Source of the DNA: Acinetobacter phage YC#06
Strand: one strand, 5' to 3'
Length of the DNA stretch: 48,885 nucleotides
Sequence record: ON391949.1
The position numbers and the translations under genes are program-made. Position 1 is the first letter of the stretch. Each line of letters begins with the position of its first letter. The notes under the pieces were generated by a model. That model was not told where the DNA came from. It made no database searches and worked only from the letters and a program-made list of their open reading frames with translations. Shown here piece after piece: positions 5,579-48,885 of the stretch.

Positions 5579-5649
5579 AAGGGGTAAGTAATGATTATTA
5601 TCACCACTTCAAAGCCCCTTCGAACCCCCTTCAAAGGAGATAAATAACC

Positions 5650-6543
5650 ATGCGTGACTATGGGAAAGTCTCACCACATTTCTGGACGGGAACTACGGGA
5701 AAAAAACTTCGTCAAACACCTGAAGGCTTAATTGTCGCTATGTATTTAATGACAAGCCCTCACGCGAACATGCTTGGCTTGTATTACATACCCCTTCTAT
5801 ATATTGCTCATGAAACTGGCTTGGGCTTTGAAGGGGCTTCTAAGGGGCTTCAAAGAGCCTGTGAAGCGGGGTTTTGTAGCTATGACGAAGCCACGGAGAC
5901 AGTCTGGGTGCACGAGATGGCACGTTTTCAAGTAGCTGAGTCATTAAAGCCAGCCGATAACCGCTGTAAGAACGTGCAAAAAGAGTATGATTCATTGCCG
6001 TCAAGCCCTTATTTATCAAGCTTTTTCGATAAATATGCACAAGCATTTTGTATGACTCAAAAGCGTGGCGAAAACGCCAAAATAGATAGCCCCTTACAAG
6101 CCCCTTCAAAGCCCCTTCGAAGCCAGGAACAGGAACAGGAGCAGGAGCAGGAGCAGGAACAAGAAAATACTCACACACAAAACGCGGTTGAAAATTTTTC
6201 AGCGGCCGAGGAGTCTTGGAAACCAAATCGTGAACTATTGCTGAATGTTCTTAGGACTTCACAAGTGGGTGCACAAGCAGAGCAGGTTTTAAAAATGCCA
6301 AATTATGAATTTCATCTTGGCAACTTCAATGCTCACTGGGAAAACAAAATTGATCTCACGGAAAACCAACGAACTCGAAAGTTTGCAACTTGGTTAATTC
6401 AGGAATTCACAAAGTCGATAAGACCTAAAAAACAAAACTCACCAATGAAAACTGCACCAGCAAGAGACGTAAACAGTGCTTGGGGTGATGCAAAACAGTA
6501 TGCACCAGCCACAGATGATATCGATGTAGGGGAGATGCTATGA
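5650..6543 (+). CDS. replication initiation / replisome organiser protein with internal origin-like iterons
   Basis: Position upstream of DnaC-like loader; iteron clusters and QE-repeat linker inside the gene, as in lambda O. Confidence 0.55.
   Translation: MRDYGKVSPHFWTGTTGKKLRQTPEGLIVAMYLMTSPHANMLGLYYIPLLYIAHETGLGFEGASKGLQRACEAGFCSYDEATETVWVHEMARFQVAESLKPADNRCKNVQKEYDSLPSSPYLSSFFDKYAQAFCMTQKRGENAKIDSPLQAPSKPLRSQEQEQEQEQEQEQENTHTQNAVENFSAAEESWKPNRELLLNVLRTSQVGAQAEQVLKMPNYEFHLGNFNAHWENKIDLTENQRTRKFATWLIQEFTKSIRPKKQNSPMKTAPARDVNSAWGDAKQYAPATDDIDVGEML
5823..5859. repeat. iteron cluster 3x AAGGGGCTT
   Basis: GGGCTTTGAAGGGGCTTCTAAGGGGCTTCAAAGAGCC. Confidence 0.6.
6088..6124. repeat. iteron cluster 3x AAGCCCCTT (inverse orientation); related copy at 5607-5637
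   Basis: AGCCCCTTACAAGCCCCTTCAAAGCCCCTTCGAAGCC. Confidence 0.6.
6124..6165 (+). repeat. hexanucleotide repeat (CAGGAR)x7 encoding (QE)n linker
   Basis: caggaacaggaacaggagcaggagcaggagcaggaacaagaa. Confidence 0.8.
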
Positions 6544-20092: not shown

Positions 20093-20462
20093 TATGGGCT
20101 TACGTGACGAAATTCAGGCAGACATTGCTGAAGCATTTAATGATGATTTGGCTGACGCCGTTCATTCATTTACTTGTGAGCGGATCTCAAAAACTAATTG
20201 GGATCCTAAAACTGAAACATATGTTGAAGTTAAAGAAAACTATTCCGGCCGAGGCGTTCTGTTTGGCTCATACAGTCAATATGAGATTCAGACGCTTGGA
20301 GTATTAGCAACGGATAAGAAGGCGACCTTGCTGCAAAATGAAGTATCCATGACACCTAAAATTGATGATGAATGGCTAACAGCTTTAGGTTCATTTCGAG
20401 TTATCCATATTCAACAAGATCCAATCAGTGCAAGCTGGAAATGTCAGCTTCGAAAAGTGTAG
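20049..20462 (+). CDS. head-tail joining protein
   Basis: Synteny. Confidence 0.35.
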   Translation: MQVLMALAYHFTGLDMGLRDEIQADIAEAFNDDLADAVHSFTCERISKTNWDPKTETYVEVKENYSGRGVLFGSYSQYEIQTLGVLATDKKATLLQNEVSMTPKIDDEWLTALGSFRVIHIQQDPISASWKCQLRKV

Positions 20463-20875
20463 GGGCTAAAATGGTTAATACCGAATATGTTCAAGAGTGG
20501 TACATCACACCTTTTCAGCATGTGCAATACACGCTTGCTAGAAATCAGCTTCACATGGATTTGTTATTTGAAGATATGGATGAAGCTGATCAATTTTTGG
20601 ATATGGGAGCGGATGCACAGGTTAGTACTTTTTCTGATGGTGCATATGCAATCGTCCAAATTGGTGATACGGCGGATAAAGACAAAATTCAAGTATATGG
20701 ATTGCTTTTACATGAAGCGGTTCACGTTTGGCAAATAGTAAAGAAGCGAATGGGTGAAAGTGAACCAAGTGTTGAGTTTGAAGCATATTCAATTCAAGCG
20801 ATCGCTCAAGACCTATTTGAAATGTACGAAGCAAGCGAGGTGAGCAATGGGGTGGAAGGGGAAAAAGCCGACTAG
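20372..20875 (+). CDS. head-tail joining protein
   Basis: Synteny. Confidence 0.35.
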   Translation: MANSFRFISSYPYSTRSNQCKLEMSASKSVGAKMVNTEYVQEWYITPFQHVQYTLARNQLHMDLLFEDMDEADQFLDMGADAQVSTFSDGAYAIVQIGDTADKDKIQVYGLLLHEAVHVWQIVKKRMGESEPSVEFEAYSIQAIAQDLFEMYEASEVSNGVEGEKAD

Positions 20876-21215
20876 TTTTAGTCTTGATGTGGCTAAAACA
20901 GCAGAAGCACATGTAAAGAATATTGTCATGGATACCGTGCAATCCTTAGTTAATTTAAGTCCTGTTGATACTGGAGCATACCGTGCTTCACATATTGTTT
21001 CGATTGGATCTGCTGACTATGGCATACGTGGACCTGAAACAAATGCTATTCAGGATGCAGCAATTCAAGCTGTAAAGATTAAATTGGGCAATTTGGTTTA
21101 TATCCAGAACAACCAGCCTTATGCAGAGCGCTTAGAAAACGGCTGGTCTGATCAAGCACCACAAGGAATTTACAACACCACCTTTACCTTTATTTCTCAG
21201 AAGTATGGCGGCTAA
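20847..21215 (+). CDS. head-tail adaptor-like protein
   Basis: Synteny. Confidence 0.4.
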   Translation: MGWKGKKPTSFSLDVAKTAEAHVKNIVMDTVQSLVNLSPVDTGAYRASHIVSIGSADYGIRGPETNAIQDAAIQAVKIKLGNLVYIQNNQPYAERLENGWSDQAPQGIYNTTFTFISQKYGG

Positions 21216-21615
21216 AATGGCAATGACTTTAGAGCAGACAAGGCAAGCTATTATCGATCGTATGCAAGCTTTTACAGGTATTACGCAAGACAGAATCCAG
21301 TATCCAAATTTTCCAGGCTTTAATGTACCTAAAGATGGTGTTTGGTGCCGCTTAACGATTGCAGGTGGTCCCAGTTTTAATTCTGGCATTGCAGATAAGC
21401 CATGTACTCGCCGTACCGGTAATATCATGATTCAATGCTTTGCACGTCCCAATTCAGGAATAATTGAAATCACAAAATTGAGTGATGCATTACTTGCTCA
21501 TTTTGAATATTTCACAATCGAACACTTAGAATGTTTGAATGGCCAATCTATTTATGCGGGTAAAGATGCTGATTTCATTCAGTATAATGTGAGCATTGGG
21601 TACAAGGTGAATTGA
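21205..21615 (+). CDS. tail completion protein
   Basis: Synteny. Confidence 0.4.
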   Translation: MAAKMAMTLEQTRQAIIDRMQAFTGITQDRIQYPNFPGFNVPKDGVWCRLTIAGGPSFNSGIADKPCTRRTGNIMIQCFARPNSGIIEITKLSDALLAHFEYFTIEHLECLNGQSIYAGKDADFIQYNVSIGYKVN

Positions 21616-21616
21616 T

Positions 21617-21835
21617 ATGTCATGTATGCTGACTTTAGAAGAAATCGAAATTAAACGGCAAGAACTGGAAAGACATCTTGAAGATGTTATGGCTGTTGAA
21701 CTGAAGAAGTGGCAAAGCGAAAATAAGCTATGTGTTTCCGATGTGAATATACGCTTGGCTAATGTTGATTGTCTCGGAGGGCCTAAACATAACGTTGTTA
21801 CTGGAGTAAGTGTTGATTTAGATTACAAACCTTAA
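21617..21835 (+). CDS. hypothetical protein
   Basis: ORF with coupled start. Confidence 0.3.
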   Translation: MSCMLTLEEIEIKRQELERHLEDVMAVELKKWQSENKLCVSDVNIRLANVDCLGGPKHNVVTGVSVDLDYKP

Positions 21836-22282: not shown

Positions 22283-23277
22283 TGGCAAATCTTGTTTTTA
22301 AATTTAGTTGGGATCACCGGCCATTCCCGTATAACTCGGCTCAGGGAAAACGGCAATTCATGCTGCCATTCGCTTCAGGCATTCCTAATCTGGCACCAAA
22401 CTTTTCGCAGGTCCAAGGTACTGCTGCAGTCTCTCAAGGTGGTACTGGGGCAACCACTGCAGCAGAAGCGCGAAATAATCTTGGTGCTGCTGAAAAAGGT
22501 GTAAATACTGACATTACTGAAATGAAAGGTTTAGCTACTCCACTTTCAGTTGCGCAAGGTGGAACGGGTGCTTCTTCTACAGCAGGTGCTCGTTTAGTTC
22601 TTGGTTTAGGTGATATAGGGACTTCTGGATTTTTTGGAAGTAAAATTAGCGAGCTATATAACAAGGTGTCGGTTCCACAATGGATAGCTGTATTAGGTGA
22701 TAACAAGTTCACTTTCCTATCAAGTGGCGACTGGCAAGCGGGGAATACAAAGAACCCACTTAATATGCCTAGCCGATATGGTTCTTTAATGTCGTATTTG
22801 GGATCAAGCTCATATGGAACGTATTCATGGCAGATTTTTAAGGCAGTATTGGGTGGACAGCTTTCCTACCGATATGGGGCAGGAAATAATGTCTGGACTA
22901 CATGGGGACACATTAAAACCAGCTTTAATACATCAGTCGATGCAAATGGGTTCTTAAAATCGGCATCACCAGTAGTGAAGTTATTTAATGATCATATTGA
23001 ACTTAATAGTGATGCAGAAAAGCAACCAATCGAATTTAAGAAAGTTGATGTAGGCGATTATTTAATTAAGGGCTCTTTAGTCTTTGCACAGGAAGGTTGG
23101 TATATCGAAGCACCTAAAGACGCAAACGGCAACACAATCGTTGCAGTAGTGTATGACACCCTAGAAAATGGTGACATCTCAATTAAAACTTACAAGCGTA
23201 AGTTTGATTTTGAACTTGCTGCTGTTGTGGCAGATCACGAGAACCCAATGGACATTCCAGAAGGCAGTAGTGTATGA
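22282..23277 (+). CDS. tail fibre protein, N-terminal/main part (frame ends inside 121-bp duplication)
   Basis: Repeated QGGTGA(T/S) motifs typical of phage fibre N-termini; stop created in second repeat copy. Confidence 0.55.
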   Translation: MANLVFKFSWDHRPFPYNSAQGKRQFMLPFASGIPNLAPNFSQVQGTAAVSQGGTGATTAAEARNNLGAAEKGVNTDITEMKGLATPLSVAQGGTGASSTAGARLVLGLGDIGTSGFFGSKISELYNKVSVPQWIAVLGDNKFTFLSSGDWQAGNTKNPLNMPSRYGSLMSYLGSSSYGTYSWQIFKAVLGGQLSYRYGAGNNVWTTWGHIKTSFNTSVDANGFLKSASPVVKLFNDHIELNSDAEKQPIEFKKVDVGDYLIKGSLVFAQEGWYIEAPKDANGNTIVAVVYDTLENGDISIKTYKRKFDFELAAVVADHENPMDIPEGSSV

Positions 23278-23384
23278 CACCCTAGAAAATGGTGACATCT
23301 CAATTAAAACTTACAAGCGTAAGTTTGATTTTGAACTTGCTGCTGTTGCCATTGTAGCTGATCTCGAAAATCCACTTGATATTC
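23143..23384 (+). repeat. tandem duplication, period 121 bp (first 85 bp identical, last 36 bp diverged)
   Basis: gcagtagtgtatgacaccctagaaaatggtgacatctcaattaaaacttacaagcgtaagtttgattttgaacttgctgctgttg at 23143 and 23264. Confidence 0.9.
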
Positions 23385-23557
23385 CAGAAGGCCGCTGGAT
23401 TGATATCCGTCTGCATGAAGAACCTGAACCAGAGCCTGAAGAGCCGTTGAGTGAAACACCAGTGGATTTCCAGCCGACTAACTTATCTCAGGCAGTTGCT
23501 GCAGCCATGAATGGCGTGGAACCGCCAGAAATCTCAGAAACAGACGAAACACTTTAA
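23168..23557 (+). CDS. tail fibre C-terminal segment in shifted frame
   Basis: Re-reads the duplicated VVYDTLENGDISIKTYKRKFDFELAAV peptide then continues to an acidic C-terminus. Confidence 0.4.
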   Translation: MVTSQLKLTSVSLILNLLLLWQITRTQWTFQKAVVYDTLENGDISIKTYKRKFDFELAAVAIVADLENPLDIPEGRWIDIRLHEEPEPEPEEPLSETPVDFQPTNLSQAVAAAMNGVEPPEISETDETL

Positions 23558-23560
23558 TAA

Positions 23561-23583
23561 CCCGCTTAAACAGCGGGTTTTTT
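23561..23583 (+). terminator. rho-independent terminator after tail fibre
   Basis: cccgcttaaacagcggg + T6. Confidence 0.6.
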
Positions 23584-23609
23584 ATTGCCTAAATTTTGGA
23601 GAACCATAA

Positions 23610-24527
23610 ATGAGTTCAGGCGCAAAAATTCGATTATATGCTTGTGAGGAAGCAGTTTTAGGAACAACTCCTGCAAATCCAGTCTGGTACACCGTTCGCC
23701 GTGTTACTGATAGTTTGACTGAAAATGTTACTACTGAAGATAGCAGTGAAGTAGTTGATTCACGTTTTCGCCAAGGCGCTGTTGTAACGGAAGCCGAAGT
23801 AACTGGTCAACTAGAGTTTGAATTATCACTAGGTACCTTTGACTTATTCTTAAATGTTCTCGCTTTCAATAACTGGGCTGCAAATGCTTTAAGTTTTGGT
23901 GGTGGAGTACGTAAGTCTCTTACCTTGGTAAAAGTCTTTGAAGATATTGGTCAAGTCTTTATTTATCGTGGTATTCAAGTGAATACAGGTGAAATGACGA
24001 TCCAGACCACAGGCAAAATCACTGGTAACTTTGGTTTAGTAGGTAGCTCATTTACGCGACAGCAGGTTAATCCTGTTACAAATCCTATTCCAGCATCGAC
24101 TCGCCCTCTGGTGAGTATGCCAAATGTTGAAAAGCTACTTATTAATGGTCAATCAATTCAGGGTAAAGCTTGTCTGCAGACACTTACCATCAACTTTAGT
24201 AATAATCTGGAAGCGATCCGTTGTATCGGTTCTGGTAAGTACACGCCTGAGTTTTACTTAGAGAAAATGATGGATATTGGCGTAAATGCTAATTTCATGT
24301 TTTCAGCAACATCTGCTTCTTGGATTGATGCTATTAAAACCCGTGATGTATTTACATTGACCTTCGATATTACAGATACCAAAGGCAGTAAGTACTCGTT
24401 TAACTTCCCGCAACTTGAAGTTAAGGAAGCAAATCACCCTGATGGTGGTGGCGATGACATTATTACAATAGATATCAATTTTGCCCAAGTGCGTACCAGT
24501 CCAACGATTGTACGTGCTCTTGTGTAA
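23610..24527 (+). CDS. major tail (tube) protein
   Basis: 305 aa immediately upstream of the G/GT chaperone pair. Confidence 0.6.
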   Translation: MSSGAKIRLYACEEAVLGTTPANPVWYTVRRVTDSLTENVTTEDSSEVVDSRFRQGAVVTEAEVTGQLEFELSLGTFDLFLNVLAFNNWAANALSFGGGVRKSLTLVKVFEDIGQVFIYRGIQVNTGEMTIQTTGKITGNFGLVGSSFTRQQVNPVTNPIPASTRPLVSMPNVEKLLINGQSIQGKACLQTLTINFSNNLEAIRCIGSGKYTPEFYLEKMMDIGVNANFMFSATSASWIDAIKTRDVFTLTFDITDTKGSKYSFNFPQLEVKEANHPDGGGDDIITIDINFAQVRTSPTIVRALV

Positions 24528-24545
24528 TCAACTTATTCAGTAACA

Positions 24546-24573
24546 AAGCCTATGGAAACCCATGGGCTTTTTT
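24546..24573 (+). terminator. rho-independent terminator after major tail gene
   Basis: gcctatggaaacccatgggc + T6. Confidence 0.5.
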
Positions 24574-24596
24574 ATTTCTAAAAATTAGAGGTTGTT

Positions 24597-25112
24597 ATGG
24601 CTTTAAAAGTCGGAATTATTAAAAGCTCAGACGTATCAAAATGGTGTGAATACAAGGGTGCTGATGGCGATGTACAGGCTGAGTTCAAAGTCCGTGGTAT
24701 CGCTTATAAGCCTTTTCAGGTAGCTATTGAACGGGCAGGAAACCAGATCTCGTCTAAAGGCTATGATGTGATGGTCAAAGATGAAGATGCCAAGCTTTAC
24801 CACGAGCTTTTAATGGATGCATGCGCGGCCCACTTAATCGAAGACTGGAAAGGTGTGGTATTTGCCGAAATCGTAGACGGTAAAACTGTTGAGTCCGAAA
24901 AGCCATATACACCTGAGAATGCCTCAAAGCTTCTTAATCTTGGTGATATTGGTATTTCAATCTGGCTATTCATTAAAGAACAGGCCCAGAAGATTCAGGA
25001 AGACGCAGACAAGGACAAGGCTTTAATTCTGGGAAAGTCATGGAGCTCTACAAATACCAAAAAACGTATGCGTCGAAAACGCCGCACGAAATCGAGCAAA
25101 TCAAGTTCTTAG
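24597..25112 (+). CDS. tail assembly chaperone (lambda gpG analogue)
   Basis: Precedes tape measure; contains slippery heptamer near the 3' end. Confidence 0.6.
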   Translation: MALKVGIIKSSDVSKWCEYKGADGDVQAEFKVRGIAYKPFQVAIERAGNQISSKGYDVMVKDEDAKLYHELLMDACAAHLIEDWKGVVFAEIVDGKTVESEKPYTPENASKLLNLGDIGISIWLFIKEQAQKIQEDADKDKALILGKSWSSTNTKKRMRRKRRTKSSKSSS

Positions 25113-25234
25113 GATTCAGGAAGACGCAGACAAGGACAAGGCTTTAATTCTGGGAAAGTCATGGAGCTCTACAAATACCAAAAAACGTATGCGTCGAAAA
25201 CGCCGCACGAAATCGAGCAAATCAAGTTCTTAGG
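24993..25234 (+). repeat. perfect tandem duplication, period 121 bp, spanning the frameshift site and the G stop codon
   Basis: 24993-25113 identical to 25114-25234. Confidence 0.95.
25031..25037 (+). other. programmed -1 ribosomal frameshift slippery heptamer G GGA AAG (second copy at 25152-25158)
   Basis: Identical to lambda G/GT slippery sequence; correct frame relationship G(0) to T(-1). Confidence 0.6.
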
Positions 25235-27834: not shown

Positions 27835-28410
27835 TTGATTAATGACCGCCTTTTGGCGGTTTTTTATTGCCTAGAGGAAAGTAAAATGGCACAAGAATCC
27901 CGTTTGGTCATTGTTATTGATTCGCAAAATGCTGAACGTAATGCGCGTAATCTAGGCAATGAACTTGTTAGCATTGAACGTAAAGGTGAATTTGCATCTA
28001 AGTCTATGGACAGCTTGTCTGTAGCCACCAGAGCTTTAGCTGGACACATGGCTGGTTTATTAACAGTAGGTTCAGCCATTTCAAAGATGGATACATATAC
28101 TGGATTACAAAATCGCCTTAAGTTAGTCACTAACAATCAAGTTGAACTAAATAAAGCAACGGAAGACACTTTCCGAATTGCTCAAAAAACCTATTCAGCT
28201 TGGGATTCTGTGTTACAGGTTTACCAGCGTTTTAGTGATAATGCCAAAACTTTAAACCTCACAATGGATGACACAGCACGTTTAACTGAAACAGTTTCTA
28301 AAGCTGTAGCAATTAGTGGTGCAAGCGCAGAAGCTGCTGATGCAGCTTTAGTTCAGTTCGGGCAGGCCTTGGCTAGTGGAACGTTGCGTGGACACTGCTC
28401 GACTAACTGA
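27835..28410 (+). CDS. tape measure protein N-terminal fragment (true start likely ATG 27887)
   Basis: Ends just inside second copy of 121-bp repeat; the duplicated peptide DTARLTETVSKAVAISGASAEAADAALVQFGQALASGTLRG is shared with next ORF. Confidence 0.5.
   Translation: MINDRLLAVFYCLEESKMAQESRLVIVIDSQNAERNARNLGNELVSIERKGEFASKSMDSLSVATRALAGHMAGLLTVGSAISKMDTYTGLQNRLKLVTNNQVELNKATEDTFRIAQKTYSAWDSVLQVYQRFSDNAKTLNLTMDDTARLTETVSKAVAISGASAEAADAALVQFGQALASGTLRGHCSTN
27844..27866 (+). terminator. rho-independent terminator before tape measure
   Basis: gaccgccttttggcggt + T6. Confidence 0.55.
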
Positions 28411-28511
28411 AACAGTATCAAAAGCAGTTGCGATCAGTGGTGCAAGCGCAGAAGCTGCTGATGCAGCTTTAGTACAATTTGGGCAGGCTTTGGCAAGCGG
28501 TACATTACGTG
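28270..28511 (+). repeat. tandem duplication, period 121 bp, copies differ only at synonymous positions
   Basis: Copy at 28270 and copy at 28391 encode identical 41-aa peptide with about 21 synonymous differences. Confidence 0.9.
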
Positions 28512-31500
28512 GTGAAGAACTCAACTCAGTTATGGAACAAACACCAGCTCTAGCAAAGGCTATTGCTCAAGGCATGGGGATCACCGTAGGAGAGTTGCGT
28601 TCAGTTGCGGCTGAAGGAAAAATTACTTCACAAGAAATCGTTAAAGCGCTTAAAAATGTCCAAGATGAAGTTGATGCTCTTTTTGCTAAAACTGACATTA
28701 CAATTGGTCAATCATTAACTCTACTTAATAATGAAATTACTAAATTTGTAGGAGAGGCTGGTAAAGGAAGCGGAGCAGCACAGGCTTTATCAGGATCGAT
28801 TCAGTTATTAGCAAATAATTTGAATTTAATTGCAGACAGTGCATTTGCCATAGGTATTGGCTTAATGACAAAAGCCGTTTTAACAAAAACGGTTGCTGTA
28901 CAAGCGAGCATTGCTGCGTCAACCAAACAAGTGTTTGCCACAATTGCTGAACGTAATGCAAATATTGCAGCAGCAAAAGCTGAAGTGGAATCTGCGCTTG
29001 CCGAAGCACAAAGTACACAGGTGACACTAACGAACATCAAAGCTACTCATGCTCAGATCATGGCAGAAATAGAACTCGAAAAAGTTCGTTTAAAAGCCCA
29101 AATCACTGAACAAGGTCGCACGGCTACCATCACACGAATGGCTCAGCTTGGACGATTACAAGCTCAAGTTGCGTTAGAGGTTGCTGCTGCGGAAACAGCA
29201 CAGTCTGCAGCTTCATCTAGATTATCAGCAGCCTTAACAGCGCAATCTGTTGCTACTAGCCGTTTAGCTTTAGCAAAGTCAGCGCTTATGGCGATTTTTA
29301 GCCCAATGGGTTTAGCAATTGCAGCAACAGCCGCATCTTTCTATTTACTAAGCAGCAGTTCGGATGAAGTCAAAGAGTCTCTTGCAACACAATCTGACTC
29401 GGTTAGTGATTTAACAGATAAGTACATAAAGTTAAATACTGTGCAAGCATTAACAGAGGGTGTGCGGTTACGCAAAGAGATTGAGCAGCAAAATGATGCA
29501 ATTGATGATGCTAGTGGAGCTATCAAACGTTTTGCTTATATCCAAAAGGAATTATTTAAATTATCTGGCAGTGATTATGAAGATTATCAAAATGCCATTA
29601 AGTCTATTGCTACAGGTGCAAGCGATGCAGGTGATCTCTTAAAAAAGATGATTTCATCTGGTCGTTTTAGTCAGACTCAAATTGATAAACTTATTGAGTT
29701 CTCTAGTGTAGTAGCAGAATCAAAAAATAAGATTGAGCAGGGTAATACTGCTCTAAAACTCTTAAATGCTACTTCTGGACAACATGTTGAGGTAACGGCC
29801 GAATCAATTAAGCAATTAACTATTCAAACCAACTTAACAAAAGTTGCTACTCAAAATTTCACTGACATGAAAACACAAATGCTTGATTCATTACGAGCAC
29901 AAGTGGAATTCATTCGGTTAAATGGTGGTAGCGAAGAACAAGTTAAATCGTTGAATAAGGTAATCCAGGCATATTCTTTAAATCAAATTTCAGCAACTGA
30001 TGCTGTGGACAAGTTCAACAGTACTGCCAAAGTTCCTGCTGAAAATATCAAGGGGTTACAGGATTATGCTACTAAAACGGATCAGTCTAAAATTGCGTTG
30101 AATCAGGCTAATGCTGAGCTGAAGAAACAAAACGACTTACGTAATGAGTACCTAAAACAACATCAAACTGTACTTGGTGCTCAACAAGGAGAAACAAATG
30201 AATTAAATAACCAAGTCGCTGCACAAGAAAAGTTAAATAAGTTACGAGACAACGCCAACAAAGATATTCTGAAAAATGATTTTCTTATAAAAAACACTAA
30301 GGCATTTGGTGGTGGCGAAAAGGGTCTTGATAAGGCGCGTGCGGCATCAGAGTTTTATACCGACAATAAAATTCCGATGACTAGAAGTTTAACTAGTCAG
30401 GAAGCTGCAATTTTTGAGGCTTGGTATAAGAAGCAGAAGGAAGCCAAGGACTTACAAGAAAGTATTACCGAATCTAGCAGAAAGCAAACAAAAGAGGTTG
30501 AAAAACAAACCAAAGAGTCTGCCAAACAAGCTGTTCTACTTGCTGGAAATGATGAGCGAGTGAGAAATATGCTACGAGTGTATCTGGCATTTCGAAATGC
30601 AGGTTTAGGCGATAAACAAGCTCGTGTAATGACAGCTCAAGTTGGACGAGAGACTGATTTTAGAAATGAGGCAATGTTTGGTAGCCATAAGGATGAAAAT
30701 AATGGTTATACAAATACTGGATTTTTATCATGGCAAAAAAGTCGCTCAACTAAATTAATGCAGTCTTTACAAGGGCAAGGAGTCTTGGATAAAAACGGTA
30801 AAATCCAGCAAACTCAAGATGCATTAGATGCAATGGCTAAACACGCTGTGCAAGAGGCGATGACCGATAAAAGTTATAGTAAATCTAAAGCAGCTCTTCT
30901 TAATGACGATTTAGACTATCGAAGTTTAGAGAGAATTGTTGCCAAAAATTTTGTTGGCTGGGACTATGACGGGAAAAAGCTTGGCAAAGCTAAAGCTTCA
31001 CAGCATTTAGCCAAACAAGACTCTTACTATAATCAGCTTAGTAAAATTTTAGGGGATAACCCCGAAGCAGCCTCAAAAGCAATTAGTGATCTTTCGAAAT
31101 TCGAAGATGAAGCATATAAGGCACGTGCAAAAACTCTTGAGGAAATTAAGCAGCTCCAAGCAACATATGATTCAGAAACAGTTGCTAGAAGCAAAAAACG
31201 TGAGGAGGAAATCAACAAAGCAACCATTTTAGGTCAATCAAATTTAATCCCAAAAATTAATGAGCGTTATGATGCTGAAGATAAGTTAGCTCAGAAGCAA
31301 TTTGATTTTGAAGTAAATGGTTATAAGTGGACTGAGAAGCAAAAGCTTGAGTACACATATGAAATCAATTCTTTGCGATTAGTTGCTGAAGGCAAACTCT
31401 CTGAAGATCAAAGAAAGGTTGCTTTAGATGGCCTGGAATTGCAAAAGCAGCAAGAGTTAGGATTACTAAAACTTGCTCAGGAACAGCGGTTGTTTCAGGC

Positions 31501-32902
31501 TGAGCAATTCATGCTGGGAGAAATGGAGCGTATCAAAAAACGTTATGCGCTTGAGTATGATGAAATATCAAAAATCACTGATCTTGAAGAGCGTAGAAGG
31601 AAGATGAGTGCATTTCAGGCTGATTTTATTCGTAATGGTGTGGGGAATCCAACAATTGATCAGTATGATACCTCTAGTCAGTTTCTTAAATCGACAAACT
31701 ACACCAAGCCCAAGCAAACCAATATGCAAGTATTGGATGAAGATTACGCTCAAACTTATCAAAAGTTGAAAGATAATCTTGCAGCTGTTTTGGAGTCTGA
31801 AAAAGCTAGTTATCAGGAACGATTGGAGGCGGAGCGCGTATTCAAAGAAGCAAGACAGCAAATGGATAATGAGTACCACCTGAAGGCGATTGATGCAAGA
31901 AAAGCAGATCACGACAGTCAATTGCAATTATACAGTCAGATGATTTCATCTGCTTCAAGCACATGGGGAGGTTTAACTCAAATTGTTAAGGATGCGCGTG
32001 GTGAAAATTCACGCTCTTTCAAGGCAATGTTTATAGCTCAACAATCCTTTGCTATTGCTTCTGCGATTATCTCTGCTCATTTGGCAGCTACACAAGTAGC
32101 TGCTGATGCAACGATCCCATTTTTTGGGGCAAAAATTGCGGCTTCAACCGCCATGCTTGCTATGGGATATGCAAATGCTGGTTTGATTGCTGGGCAAACA
32201 ATAGCTGGATTCTCAGATGGTGGTTACACTGGATCTGGTAGAAAATATGAACCTGCAGGTATTGTCCATAAAGGAGAGGTGGTATGGTCCCAAGAGGATA
32301 TTAAACGCTGGGGCGGAGTTGGTTTAGTTGAGAAAATGCGTAAGAGTGCAAACCCTGAAGCTTTTCTCAATAACAATGCCTCGGCAGATAGTGTCATGCG
32401 CCGTGCAATGATGAGTTCTAATGCCTTTATAGAAAGCCAAAAGCAGGCTGACATCTTTAATCAACCAGTTCAAGATACTCAGATTATCTATAAGGGTAAT
32501 AGAGACACACCTAAGTTAGCTTCTTCGGCAAATTCTGACCTGTTCCATGATGGCAAGGTCTACTTCTCATCCAATGGTATAGTTCAGGATCGCTCAAATC
32601 TGGATGATGTTCAGGACTTTACTTTAGGACGTACTTCACGCCCTCAAGCTGAGATTATGCCTTCAATTGAGCAATCCTCTCCAACTATCAATTTCAAGAT
32701 TGAAGTCGTGAATCAAGTCAGTGGTGCAACTGTTGAAGCTGAACAACTGGATGAGCAAACAGTCCGGATCATTGTTAAAGATGAACTGGATAAGCAGCTT
32801 CCAAGAACGGTACCTAAGCTTGTAAGTGATCAAATCGCAAATCCAAACTCAACCATTAGTCGGTCTTTGACTGAGAATACGACAGCAAGACGGAATCGAT
32901 AA
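28376..32902 (+). CDS. tail tape measure protein
   Basis: 1508 aa, long coiled-coil regions, C-terminal hydrophobic/Gly-rich region. Confidence 0.85.
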   Translation: MERCVDTARLTETVSKAVAISGASAEAADAALVQFGQALASGTLRGEELNSVMEQTPALAKAIAQGMGITVGELRSVAAEGKITSQEIVKALKNVQDEVDALFAKTDITIGQSLTLLNNEITKFVGEAGKGSGAAQALSGSIQLLANNLNLIADSAFAIGIGLMTKAVLTKTVAVQASIAASTKQVFATIAERNANIAAAKAEVESALAEAQSTQVTLTNIKATHAQIMAEIELEKVRLKAQITEQGRTATITRMAQLGRLQAQVALEVAAAETAQSAASSRLSAALTAQSVATSRLALAKSALMAIFSPMGLAIAATAASFYLLSSSSDEVKESLATQSDSVSDLTDKYIKLNTVQALTEGVRLRKEIEQQNDAIDDASGAIKRFAYIQKELFKLSGSDYEDYQNAIKSIATGASDAGDLLKKMISSGRFSQTQIDKLIEFSSVVAESKNKIEQGNTALKLLNATSGQHVEVTAESIKQLTIQTNLTKVATQNFTDMKTQMLDSLRAQVEFIRLNGGSEEQVKSLNKVIQAYSLNQISATDAVDKFNSTAKVPAENIKGLQDYATKTDQSKIALNQANAELKKQNDLRNEYLKQHQTVLGAQQGETNELNNQVAAQEKLNKLRDNANKDILKNDFLIKNTKAFGGGEKGLDKARAASEFYTDNKIPMTRSLTSQEAAIFEAWYKKQKEAKDLQESITESSRKQTKEVEKQTKESAKQAVLLAGNDERVRNMLRVYLAFRNAGLGDKQARVMTAQVGRETDFRNEAMFGSHKDENNGYTNTGFLSWQKSRSTKLMQSLQGQGVLDKNGKIQQTQDALDAMAKHAVQEAMTDKSYSKSKAALLNDDLDYRSLERIVAKNFVGWDYDGKKLGKAKASQHLAKQDSYYNQLSKILGDNPEAASKAISDLSKFEDEAYKARAKTLEEIKQLQATYDSETVARSKKREEEINKATILGQSNLIPKINERYDAEDKLAQKQFDFEVNGYKWTEKQKLEYTYEINSLRLVAEGKLSEDQRKVALDGLELQKQQELGLLKLAQEQRLFQAEQFMLGEMERIKKRYALEYDEISKITDLEERRRKMSAFQADFIRNGVGNPTIDQYDTSSQFLKSTNYTKPKQTNMQVLDEDYAQTYQKLKDNLAAVLESEKASYQERLEAERVFKEARQQMDNEYHLKAIDARKADHDSQLQLYSQMISSASSTWGGLTQIVKDARGENSRSFKAMFIAQQSFAIASAIISAHLAATQVAADATIPFFGAKIAASTAMLAMGYANAGLIAGQTIAGFSDGGYTGSGRKYEPAGIVHKGEVVWSQEDIKRWGGVGLVEKMRKSANPEAFLNNNASADSVMRRAMMSSNAFIESQKQADIFNQPVQDTQIIYKGNRDTPKLASSANSDLFHDGKVYFSSNGIVQDRSNLDDVQDFTLGRTSRPQAEIMPSIEQSSPTINFKIEVVNQVSGATVEAEQLDEQTVRIIVKDELDKQLPRTVPKLVSDQIANPNSTISRSLTENTTARRNR

Positions 32903-45401: not shown

Positions 45402-45473
45402 CTTTAAGCCTCCAACAACTTGTTACGTTCGATGAAGCCTCTCGAGCACACGCGCCACACGTACACCCGTTAG

Positions 45474-46683
45474 GGAAACGCTGATCAATGAGCCTGTCGT
45501 CCGCATAACGGACGAGGCAGGTTGCAATTTTCAGATTGACGTAGGAATTTGACGACATGCGAGGTGAGTTTCGCTCGTATTCGGGCCTCACTTCCCGCGT
45601 TTTTCACACACATGACGGATTGCTCCCATGAGTCGACAACAGCTGATTTTTCGCGATCACCAGGTTCGCCAGCGCGAACAGACTGAACAGCTGTGCCGTG
45701 TTCCTGGCTAGACCCTTGTAGCGCACCTTGCGATGACGAAACAGGTTCTTCACGACATGAAACGGATGCTCGACCCGGGCGCGGATCTGCGCCTTGGTTC
45801 GCTCGACCGCGATCACGAGGTCCTTCAGCGGACCTTCCTGCATCGCCCTGATCTTTCCGCGCTTGAGCGCCACGTGCCACTTCACCGTCTTGCCCTTCAT
45901 CTCCTCGCGCTTGTCCACGCCGGTGTAGCCCGCATCGCCAAACGCTTCCTGCTCATGACCGTGCAGCAGGGCGTGGGCCTGCGATACGTCCGGCTCGTTG
46001 GCCGCCGTGGTGACCACGCTATGCACCAGACCCGAGTCGGCGTCGACGCCGACATGGGCCTTCATGCCGAAATACCAGTCGTTGCCCTTCTTCGTCTGAT
46101 GCATCTCCGGGTCACGGCTCTTCCCGGCGTTCTTCGTGGACGGCGCAGCCTCGAAGATCGTCGCATCCACCAGCGTGCCTTCCTTCATCATCAGCCCGCG
46201 CTCGCACAACTCGATGCCGATCTCGTCGAACAGCTTTCGCGTCAGTGCGTGCTCGACCAGCAGGCGCCGGAATTTCAACAGCGTGGTGGCGTCCGGCACG
46301 TTCTCGCGCGCCAGGTCGATGCCCGCGAAGGCGCGCATCGCGATGCTGTCGTAGAGCGCATCTTCAAGCCCTTCGTCCGACAACCCGTACCACTGCTGCA
46401 GCAAGTAGATCCGCAGCATCCGTTCCAGGCCAATCGGCGGCCGGCCACGCTCGCCCTTCGGGTAATACGGCCCGATCACCGACAGCAGCCGCGACCAAGG
46501 GACGACCTTCTCCATCTCGGCCAGAAAGCGTTGACGCTTGGTCACCCGCTTCTTGCCCGCACTTTCCGCTTCCGCAAAACCGATCTGCCGCTGCATCGTC
46601 GTGGGTCCGTTCCGTGAGCTTCTTTCTACAACGCCCTTGGCCTCGTCAGCGATGACCGCCAAGCCGAATTGATCAGTGTTTCC
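45474..46683 (-). mobile_element. IS5-family insertion sequence, 1210 bp, 16-bp imperfect IRs GGAAACRCTGATCAAT, TSD TTAG (45470-45473 and 46684-46687)
   Basis: 65% GC island in a 40% GC background; terminal inverted repeats and flanking 4-bp direct repeat matching IS5 YTAR target. Confidence 0.8.
45604..46662 (-). CDS. IS5-family DDE transposase
   Basis: Alignable along full length to E. coli IS5 transposase (…LRIYLLQQWYGLSDEGLEDALYD…DPEMHQTKKGNDWYFGMKAHVGVD…RARVEHPF…). Confidence 0.85.
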   Translation of the reverse strand: MAVIADEAKGVVERSSRNGPTTMQRQIGFAEAESAGKKRVTKRQRFLAEMEKVVPWSRLLSVIGPYYPKGERGRPPIGLERMLRIYLLQQWYGLSDEGLEDALYDSIAMRAFAGIDLARENVPDATTLLKFRRLLVEHALTRKLFDEIGIELCERGLMMKEGTLVDATIFEAAPSTKNAGKSRDPEMHQTKKGNDWYFGMKAHVGVDADSGLVHSVVTTAANEPDVSQAHALLHGHEQEAFGDAGYTGVDKREEMKGKTVKWHVALKRGKIRAMQEGPLKDLVIAVERTKAQIRARVEHPFHVVKNLFRHRKVRYKGLARNTAQLFSLFALANLVIAKNQLLSTHGSNPSCV

Positions 46684-47349
46684 TTAGCGAGAAGGACCAC
46701 TCTGTACTCCGGTCTCACTATTTTTTCTAAAAAGATAATGTTTGAAGCAATTAAATACATTCCAAAAATTTCGACCTTGGACTACATTTTCGTACTTGAT
46801 CCAAGCGCTAAAAGTAACTTTTTGGTACAACCTTGAGCTGAAATCTGGTTCAAGGTTGAACGTTAAAGTAGAGTTGTTCTCTAGCCTATAGCATTCTTTT
46901 TGACCTGTGACGTGGTTTTCAGGTAATTTTTCAATTACAGCTCCAACCGTCTTGGATTTTATCCATAGATTCCGTCCTCCCACCTTCATTTTTGAAAATT
47001 CTTCACGCAATTTCCCAGCTTCAGATACAACTAAAGTCTTATCTGCTTTATCCTTGGTTGCGTTCAGGATTTCCTGACGGATAGAGCCAGCTCGCACCTC
47101 AAATTCAGCCTGACTCAACTTCTGATTTAGCTTGTTCTGCGTGTCTGTCTCAAGCCTCTTCACAGATTGCCGGATATTTTCAGCAGTCACATTGAGTGAG
47201 CTGATATCCACTTTGGTTCTAAGCCCTTCAGTCAAGCTTCTCACACCAGCGTCGAGCGAGTTGGCTCGTTGTTTAAAGGTCGATTCTACTGTTGAAATCT
47301 GCAACTCAACAAGCGCGTAGGGCACGTCTACAAGAAAGCATTTATGCAA
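46684..47349 (-). pseudogene. 5'-truncated ORF (beta-rich C-terminal domain, possibly fibre-like); its first 15 codons are antisense T7 RNAP sequence
   Basis: The ORF's own stop codon TAA overlaps the IS target duplication; homology break at about 47302. Confidence 0.3.
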
Positions 47350-47846
47350 GTTGTCGAGGCTGACATGCTCTCTAAGGGTCTACTCGGTGGCGAGGCGTGG
47401 TCTTCGTGGCATAAGGAAGACTCTATTCATGTAGGAGTACGCTGATATCTGCATCGAGATGCTCATTGAGTCAACCGGAATGGTTAGCTTACACCGCCAA
47501 AATGCTGGCGTAGTAGGTCAAGACTCTGAGACTATCGAACTCGGATATCAATACGCTGAGGCTATCGCAACCCGTGCAGGTGCGCTGGCTGGCATCTCTC
47601 CGATGTTCCAACCTTGCGTAGTTCCTCCTAAGCCGTGGACTGGGATATCTGGTGGTGGCTATTGGGCTAACGGTCGTCGTCCTCTGGCGCTGGTGCGTAC
47701 TCACAGTAAGAAAGCACTGATGCGCTACGAAGACGTTTACATGGATATCGTGTACAAAGCGATTAACATTGCGCAAAACACCGCATGGAAAATCAACAAG
47801 AAAGTCCTAGCGGTCGCCAACGTAATCACCAAGTGGAAGCATTGTC
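47303..47846 (+). pseudogene. bacteriophage T7 gene 1 (RNA polymerase) internal fragment, about residues 95-277, carrying GATATC hexamers at 47444, 47544, 47644, 47744
   Basis: Near-exact DNA and protein identity to T7 RNAP except at the hexamers (APE to GYQ, ITG to ISG, PEV to DIV, and a frameshifting change at the first). Confidence 0.75.
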
Positions 47847-48458
47847 TTCACCGAGATTGGCCTGAAGACCTTAGGGTCCAAGGATGCTGGTGTCCGCGCA
47901 ATCGCTCAAGACCTCGTGCGCTCTCCAACAGGGATGCAATCAGGGTCTAGCGGTAAGTTCGGTGCGACCGCTTCGGATATCCACGAGCGGCTCCACGCTA
48001 CAGACCAACGGATGTATAACCAGCTGTATGACGCTGTTGACCGTGCCATGAAGGACCCTGAGTTCTCCATCGGTGAGCAGAAGATGTCCCGTAAGGCTAT
48101 CCGTCAGGAAGTGTACAAGCGTGCTGCCTTGGCGATTGAGCGCCCAGAGCTACAGGCTGACTTGACCAAAGGTGAACGTGAGGTAATGGACTTGCTGAAA
48201 GAGCACTTCGATACCAAGCGTGAACTGATGGAACAGCCCGGTATCTTTGGCAACGCCAACGCCGTAAGCATCTTCCCCGGTAGTCGTCATAAAGGAACCT
48301 ACGTACCTAACGTGTACGATAGGGGCGCTAAGGAGCTGATGACTCAGAAGCTGGGTGGACCCGAAGGACTCTCATACGGGTCATCTGGTAGAACAGGCTG
48401 TACTTCAGCGCGTGCTTACCGTCTGCATCACGTGCCGTCTGGTAGTCCTGTCGGATAA
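47847..48458 (+). pseudogene. T7-like gp16 (internal virion protein D) internal fragment fused in frame to the RNAP fragment
   Basis: FTEIGLKTLGS...LVRSPTGMQSG.SGKFGATASDIHERLH...RAALAIERPELQ...HFDTKRELME...SIFP.SRHKGTYVP.VYDR matches T7-group gp16. Confidence 0.5.
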
Positions 48459-48870
48459 CCTCGTCACGGATAACCAAGCGGTGACTTGCCAGTACAGGCT
48501 CAAGGGTATCGCAGATACGGGCCTCTTTCATACCACGAGCACGAATCTCTTCGAGTTGCGCTGGGTGATGCTTCAGGAGCACAGGCTGGAACACGTTACC
48601 GAACATACCGTCACCGAAGTTACTCTCGAAGACCACAGTCTGCACCTGCCACTGTTTGGCTTTCTTAGCGAGGAACTCAAGGGACTTCTCTTCGTAACCA
48701 CGGGTACCTCCAGCGTCCATCAAGTAGATGTAACCGTTGAGGGTGTACAGCACGCACCAACCAGTTTCATCCTTACCGCGACCACTGGGGTCAATGACCA
48801 GAATCTTACCCTGATACGCACCAGTGTTACTGGAGGCTGTATGGAAGGAGTAAATCTCGTCACCCTTCAT
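48328..48870 (-). pseudogene. T7-like gp19 (terminase large subunit) C-terminal region fragment, antisense to the gp16 fragment
   Basis: [17 protein letters not shown] ... [10 protein letters not shown] ... GMKEARI resembles T7 gp19. Confidence 0.5.
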
Positions 48871-48885
48871 GCCAACGTTAGGAAG

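Follow-up and report, generated by a model that had tools for sequence, protein, structure and literature searches.

Why does the tape measure gene of Acinetobacter phage YC#06 (ON391949.1) contain two adjoining copies of the same 121 nucleotides, which encode the same peptide and differ from each other only at silent sites? The question was addressed in the whole stretch of 48,885 nucleotides that was analyzed (hereafter the window). Over positions 1-45413, the window shows about 99% identity to a Vieuvirus genome, that of Acinetobacter phage YMC/09/02/B1251 (NC_019541.1; hereafter B1251), and is colinear with it.

Structure of the repeat and its effect on the tape measure reading frame

Tandem Repeats Finder, an offset scan, and a repeat finder all indicated a spacing of 121 nt between the adjoining copies at 28270-28390 and 28391-28511. 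Direct reading of the sequence showed neither Ns nor a gap between them at 28390/28391. The features of the locus are as follows:

28270-28390, plus strand: repeat copy 1, 121 nt, Ab1656-2/PhabP_R1/LPAB65-type allele of tape measure codons 129-169
28391-28511, plus strand: repeat copy 2, 121 nt, B1251-type allele of tape measure codons 129-169
28390-28391, unstranded: seam J3, with the left piece reaching the equivalent of B1251 position 28145 and the right one starting again from 28025
27886-28410, plus strand: truncated N-terminal tape measure ORF, 174 aa, TMP_3 profile positions 2-108
28376-32902, plus strand: remaining tape measure ORF, 1508 aa, with a mechanical GTG start, TMP_3 profile positions 68-191

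Read in its own frame, each copy encodes the peptide DTARLTETVSKAVAISGASAEAADAALVQFGQALASGTLRG. The copies differ at 19 positions (84.3% identity), 18 of them third codon positions and one the first position of a leucine codon (TTA/CTA), and all 19 differences are synonymous. When 19 random substitutions were introduced per trial, the peptide was kept in 0 of 200,000 simulations. The repeat scans and the translation thus bear out two claims of a preliminary description of this DNA, namely a tandem 121-bp duplication at 28270-28511 and an identical 41-aa peptide from both copies. The synonymous-only divergence that it reported also stands, while its figures of about 21 third-codon differences and roughly 83% identity have to be replaced by those given above.

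Two repeats of about 120 nt and about 84% identity within a tail gene bring to mind the template and variable repeats of a diversity-generating retroelement. However, the substitutions are not restricted to adenines but form a mixed spectrum (T>A 6, A>T 4, T>C 3, G>A 3, C>T 2, A>G 1), every difference is silent, so that no diversification results, and the two repeats are directly adjacent. Moreover, the genome of B1251, at 99% identity, has no annotated reverse transcriptase. A repeat pair of this type is so improbable that it can practically be set aside.

Since 121 (3 x 40 + 1) is not a multiple of 3, the tape measure frame is broken. When either copy is deleted, the gene regains an ORF of 1631 aa, as long as the tape measure protein of B1251. 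The gene of the window is the B1251 gene with its one TMP_3 domain (Pfam PF20155), located at residues 63-252 of the intact B1251 protein. With a gathering cut-off of 41 bits, the N fragment scores 113.5 bits, the C fragment 149.9, and the intact B1251 protein 214.8. As the N fragment corresponds to profile positions 2-108 and the C fragment to positions 68-191, the repeat cuts one conserved domain. The split of the gene had been described correctly, including the stop at 28410 and the restart of the main ORF at the GTG at 28376, from which it runs to 32902; only the start of the N-terminal part, placed at 27887, has to be corrected to the ATG at 27886, giving 174 aa.

Could the two ORFs still be expressed as one polypeptide? 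Programmed frameshifts are used in tail gene clusters (G/GT chaperones), and the N-terminal and main ORFs overlap by 35 nt (28376-28410), so that a full-length tape measure protein might in principle arise if ribosomes underwent a programmed +1 shift of frame or bypassed one copy in a long hop. Yet the overlap, GTGGAACGTTGCGTGGACACTGCTCGACTAACTGA, in which a +1 shift would be required, contains neither a slippery heptamer nor a CUU-UGA-type site. A 121-nt hop requires matched take-off and landing codons, but the codons concerned are GGA (28390) and GGT (28511), and the take-off codon is not followed by a stop. Furthermore, the arrangement was found in 0 of 127 relatives. We therefore consider either form of recoded translation to be extremely unlikely.

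The two copies match two natural phage lineages

Copy 2 is 100% identical to B1251 (NC_019541.1, positions 28025-28145) and was also found in 3 of the 80 IMG/VR loci encoding the tape measure protein. Copy 1, which shares only 84.3% identity with B1251, is matched at 100% in nine GenBank phages, including PhabP_R1, Ab105-2phi/3phi, Ab1656-2, Acba_1, Attikon1, and LPAB65, and in 39 of the 80 IMG/VR loci. In Ab1656-2, PhabP_R1, and LPAB65, the mismatch-free match covers copy 1 together with 412 nt upstream of it. Sequence comparison delimited the two parental blocks as follows:

27858-28390, unstranded: left-parent block, 533 nt, 100% Ab1656-2/PhabP_R1/LPAB65-type
28391-32746, unstranded: right-parent block, 4.3 kb, 0 mismatches to B1251

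A tile-by-tile comparison gave 0 differences to the Ab1656-2 type on the left and 0 to B1251 on the right, with the switch at seam J3. The same two groupings occur in natural contigs: among the 80 IMG/VR loci, the left flank and copy 1 were found together in about 35, and copy 2 and the right flank in 3, while the two linkage groups were combined in none. In-register recombinants, that is, the window with either copy removed, were sought among the loci compared and none was found. Hence, within this set, removing one copy from the window yields the sequence of no natural genome. Judged by their sequences, the copies are orthologous alleles of two natural lineages, and their silent-only divergence is the result of ordinary purifying selection on such alleles in separate phage lineages.

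The preliminary description had offered two readings of the repeat, a recoded insert and an out-of-register joining of two diverged alleles, and had proposed asking whether either copy matches a different phage genome. Such a match exists for both copies at 100%, copy 1 being of the Ab1656-2 type and copy 2 that of B1251, and the Ab1656-2-type sequence on the left, the B1251 sequence on the right, and the 121-bp step-back between them correspond to the second reading. A synthetic insert, in which 41 codons had been synonymously redesigned and placed beside the original, would fit the 19 of 19 synonymous differences, and designed edits are present in other parts of the window (see below). Nevertheless, copy 1 occurs base for base in the nine GenBank phages and 39 IMG/VR loci mentioned above, with the upstream identity as well, and copy 2 is base for base that of B1251; a codon-recoding algorithm would not yield exact natural alleles. 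Because it is an exact natural allele whose identity reaches upstream, copy 1 is no designed recoding, and we regard the synthetic insert as highly improbable.

A natural tandem duplication within one genome, by slippage or unequal crossing-over, was also considered. Its copies would be identical at birth and would then diverge regardless of codon position in a disrupted gene. This candidate was rejected, since each copy is an exact match to a different natural lineage and none of the 19 differences alters the peptide.

Three 121-nt step-backs in the tail region

In the tail region, the window and B1251 have exactly three structural differences, each of them a 121-nt step-back in B1251 coordinates. 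Thus, the claim that two other events share the period of the tape measure repeat proved right, these being present at 23143-23390 and 24992-25233. The three seams and the two further events are listed below:

23263/23264: seam J1, B1251 23259 to 23139
25112/25113: seam J2, B1251 24987 to 24867
28390/28391: seam J3, B1251 28145 to 28025
23143-23390, plus strand: event 1, 121-nt step-back in the tail fibre gene, with a B1251-type copy 1 and an LPAB65-type copy 2 of 127 nt that has a 6-nt indel
24992-25233, plus strand: event 2, exact 121-nt step-back, with the seam at 25112/25113 directly after the stop codon of a 171-aa gene

All three step-backs lie within 5.3 kb, and each is found at a haplotype switch or no more than about 70 nt from one. 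To the left of seam 1 the sequence is B1251-type, with 0 differences; there it becomes LPAB65/Ab1656-2-type, and the piece that follows (23264-25112) is 99.3% identical to LPAB65 over its entire length. The copies of event 1 are identical in their initial 85 nt and represent a different allele with the 6-nt indel in the remainder, and the tail fibre ORF is truncated shortly past the seam (…PEGSSV, followed by a stop). The copies of event 2 are identical, and the switch from Ab-type to B1251-type takes place about 50-70 nt past the seam and not exactly there.

The second copy of event 2 begins right after the stop of the 171-aa gene (24597-25112), which, judging by its position, may encode a tail assembly chaperone.

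Two of the three step-backs hit essential tail genes, those for the tail fibre (seam 1) and the tape measure protein (seam 3). A length shared to the base, parent switches, and two broken essential genes without other decay make three independent natural duplications implausible. In contrast, a single overlap constant, kept unmerged between concatenated pieces, accounts for all three seams.

The tandem structure and its junctions were not found in relatives or in the collections scanned

The preliminary description had named a tandem structure shared by homologous phages as a point against its reading. No relative shares it: the 121-nt unit was present twice in 0 of 80 IMG/VR loci and 0 of 47 GenBank phages. 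An uninterrupted ORF runs over the unit in 78 of the 80 IMG/VR loci, and all 47 matching GenBank phages have it at one place in the tape measure gene. B1251 and the other relatives have a single copy of the unit in one continuous ORF of 1631 aa, whereas the window has two. Events 1 and 2 are likewise missing from all 34 GenBank relatives compared.

Exact searches with 40-mers spanning the seams gave the same picture. The positive control, the final 40 nt of copy 1, was recovered in 71 IMG/VR contigs, every one of which runs on in register as GAGAAGAACTT… The J3 40-mer had 0 exact matches in the IMG/VR, GTDB-representative genome, and JGI metagenome collections, and the J2 40-mer had 0 exact matches in the same three; for J1, the collection scanned was IMG/VR, again with 0 exact matches. 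Finally, none of three proteins whose existence depends on the seams (174, 331, and 1508 aa) was found by exact look-up in a public index that covers 153 billion gene positions.

Evidence that the window is a composite sequence

Within 1-45413, the differences from B1251 are concentrated in about 25 short dense patches (e.g. 20424-21664, with 80 mismatches), and long stretches between the patches have zero mismatches, a pattern of a block mosaic and not of scattered SNPs. The same part of the window contains a cluster of short tandem repeats at 5607-6165, with the 11-nt units CTTCAAACCCC, GGGCTTCGAAG, and AGCCCCTTCAA and (CAGGAA)x7. This cluster, which B1251 has too, is located in or beside the interval that separates B1251 genes 00080 and 00090; it is a possible iteron-like origin region.

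Beyond 45413, the last 316 nt of B1251 are replaced by a collage of fragments of unrelated phages from four host genera, starting with about 52 nt without a named source:

45414-48885, unstranded: foreign collage tail, 3.4 kb, with fragments from T7 and from phages of Burkholderia, Streptococcus, and Klebsiella
45466-46687: ISBmu23, an insertion sequence of Burkholderia, 99.9% identity (phage KS5), GC 0.64
46694-47301: S. pneumoniae phage PblB fragment
47302-47846: T7 RNA polymerase fragment
47444-47749, unstranded: four GATATC (EcoRV) sites exactly 100 nt apart, starting at 47444, 47544, 47644, and 47744
47847-48371: fragment of an internal virion protein gene, Klebsiella phage
48371-48885: terminase fragment, Klebsiella phage

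Compared with T7 gene 1, the T7 RNA polymerase fragment has only four differences, each of which creates a GATATC, and one of them is a frame-breaking 7-nt insertion. A window-wide scan for other arithmetic series of 6- to 10-mers found none besides GATATC. These edits are deliberate; they cannot stem from natural divergence. The entire window is flagged as composite or edited, and other findings derived from the same sequence call for caution.

These data also bear on the possibility that the seam belongs to a real molecule, created by illegitimate out-of-register recombination of related Vieuvirus prophages or co-infecting phages and retained as a hetero-allelic duplication in a defective prophage. 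Both parental alleles are common among A. baumannii prophages, a strain often has several such prophages, and the remaining genome is a patchwork of allele blocks, all of which would favor such an origin. Against this, the identical 121-nt offset would be demanded of three independent events, the microhomology at seam J3 does not exceed 2 nt, the junctions occur in no relative or public contig of the collections scanned, two essential tail genes are broken without other decay, and the window is demonstrably artificial elsewhere. A real recombinant is consequently very unlikely. It is even harder to credit, and in our view very improbable, that seams J1-J3 were all made in vivo between co-resident Vieuvirus genomes, by a recombination or template switch that starts anew at a constant distance of 121 nt upstream of where the exchange occurs, leaving hetero-allelic tandem joints behind.

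Origin of the repeat and comparison with known false duplications

We conclude that the repeat is very probably an artefact of sequence construction, that is, the seam of two natural Acinetobacter phage variants joined 121 bases out of register. The parents, the exact step-back, the absence of the structure in relatives, and the artificial character of the window elsewhere are direct observations. The join itself was presumably made by software or by hand and not in a cell. In the proposed course of events, a piece carrying the Ab1656-2-type allele and ending at 28390 would have been joined directly to a piece carrying the B1251 allele from 28391 on, and the 121 homologous bases by which the pieces overlap would have been left unmerged. 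An identical constant of 121 nt would have been applied at two further seams, a behavior resembling that of an algorithm and not that of a phage, as when overlaps stay untrimmed during assembly, scaffolding, or in-silico construction. As the tape measure genes of the parent lineages diverged at silent sites only, the overlap has the appearance of a silent-only tandem repeat.

In assembly terms, this interpretation has a counterpart in the heterotype false duplication, in which two haplotypes of one locus are placed side by side in an assembly (Ko et al. 2022, PMC9516828; purge_dups, PMC7203741). The window resembles such cases in that (i) the allelic versions are in tandem, with haplotype-specific bases in each copy, (ii) a gene is spuriously disrupted or gained, and (iii) the structure is missing from independent assemblies. 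The copies are different alleles of one locus, and in natural contigs each occurs together with its respective flank. Unlike in diploid genomes, the alleles come from two phage lineages and not from two chromosomes, and, again unlike in heterotype false duplications, the length is fixed at 121 nt at three seams. Moreover, there is no gap between the copies, in contrast to many scaffold-level false duplications, where a gap is frequent though not obligatory. In these terms, the best-supported classification of the tape measure repeat is a heterotype false duplication, with event 2 as its homotype counterpart.

The window can also be compared with untrimmed k-mer overlaps, which in phage and circular-contig assemblies give exact direct repeats of length k; a constant, algorithm-sized repeat length and a gene split into two ORFs are seen in both. 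An overlap in a plain de Bruijn graph is exact by construction, whereas the copies at seam 3 are 84% identical and those at seam 1 contain an indel; the length of 121 is constant at all three seams, but exactness is seen at event 2 only. A simple graph overlap with k = 121 was therefore rejected as the full explanation: it fits the exact event 2 and not the diverged events 1 and 3, for which it is insufficient alone. Seams 1 and 3 need a homology- or coordinate-based join between different haplotypes.

Exact tandem duplications that divide phage genes were also encountered in other public records. In OY976571.1 (Klebsiella phage vB_Kpl_K48PH164C1), an exact 127-nt tandem duplication at 363-616 of the segment compared divides the terminase large subunit into two annotated CDSs; 127 is a common maximum k-mer size of assemblers. 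In the related phage YMC11/11/R3177 (NC_041866.1, 42930-43253), an exact 162-nt tandem duplication is located at the start of the tape measure gene, for which two CDSs are annotated; the duplication may be an assembly artefact in the public record. Both are precedents for exact, algorithm-sized tandem repeats splitting phage genes.

Taken at face value, the locus would point to an insert that had been recoded or engineered, or to an unusual split expression of the tape measure protein, and neither holds. Nothing in the window implies that a real phage possesses a split tape measure gene. The diagnostic lesson is that a silent-only tandem repeat can be identified as a hetero-allelic false duplication if both copies, each with its flank, exactly match different natural lineages, and the recurrence of the same fixed offset at other seams is a further sign of it in this case.
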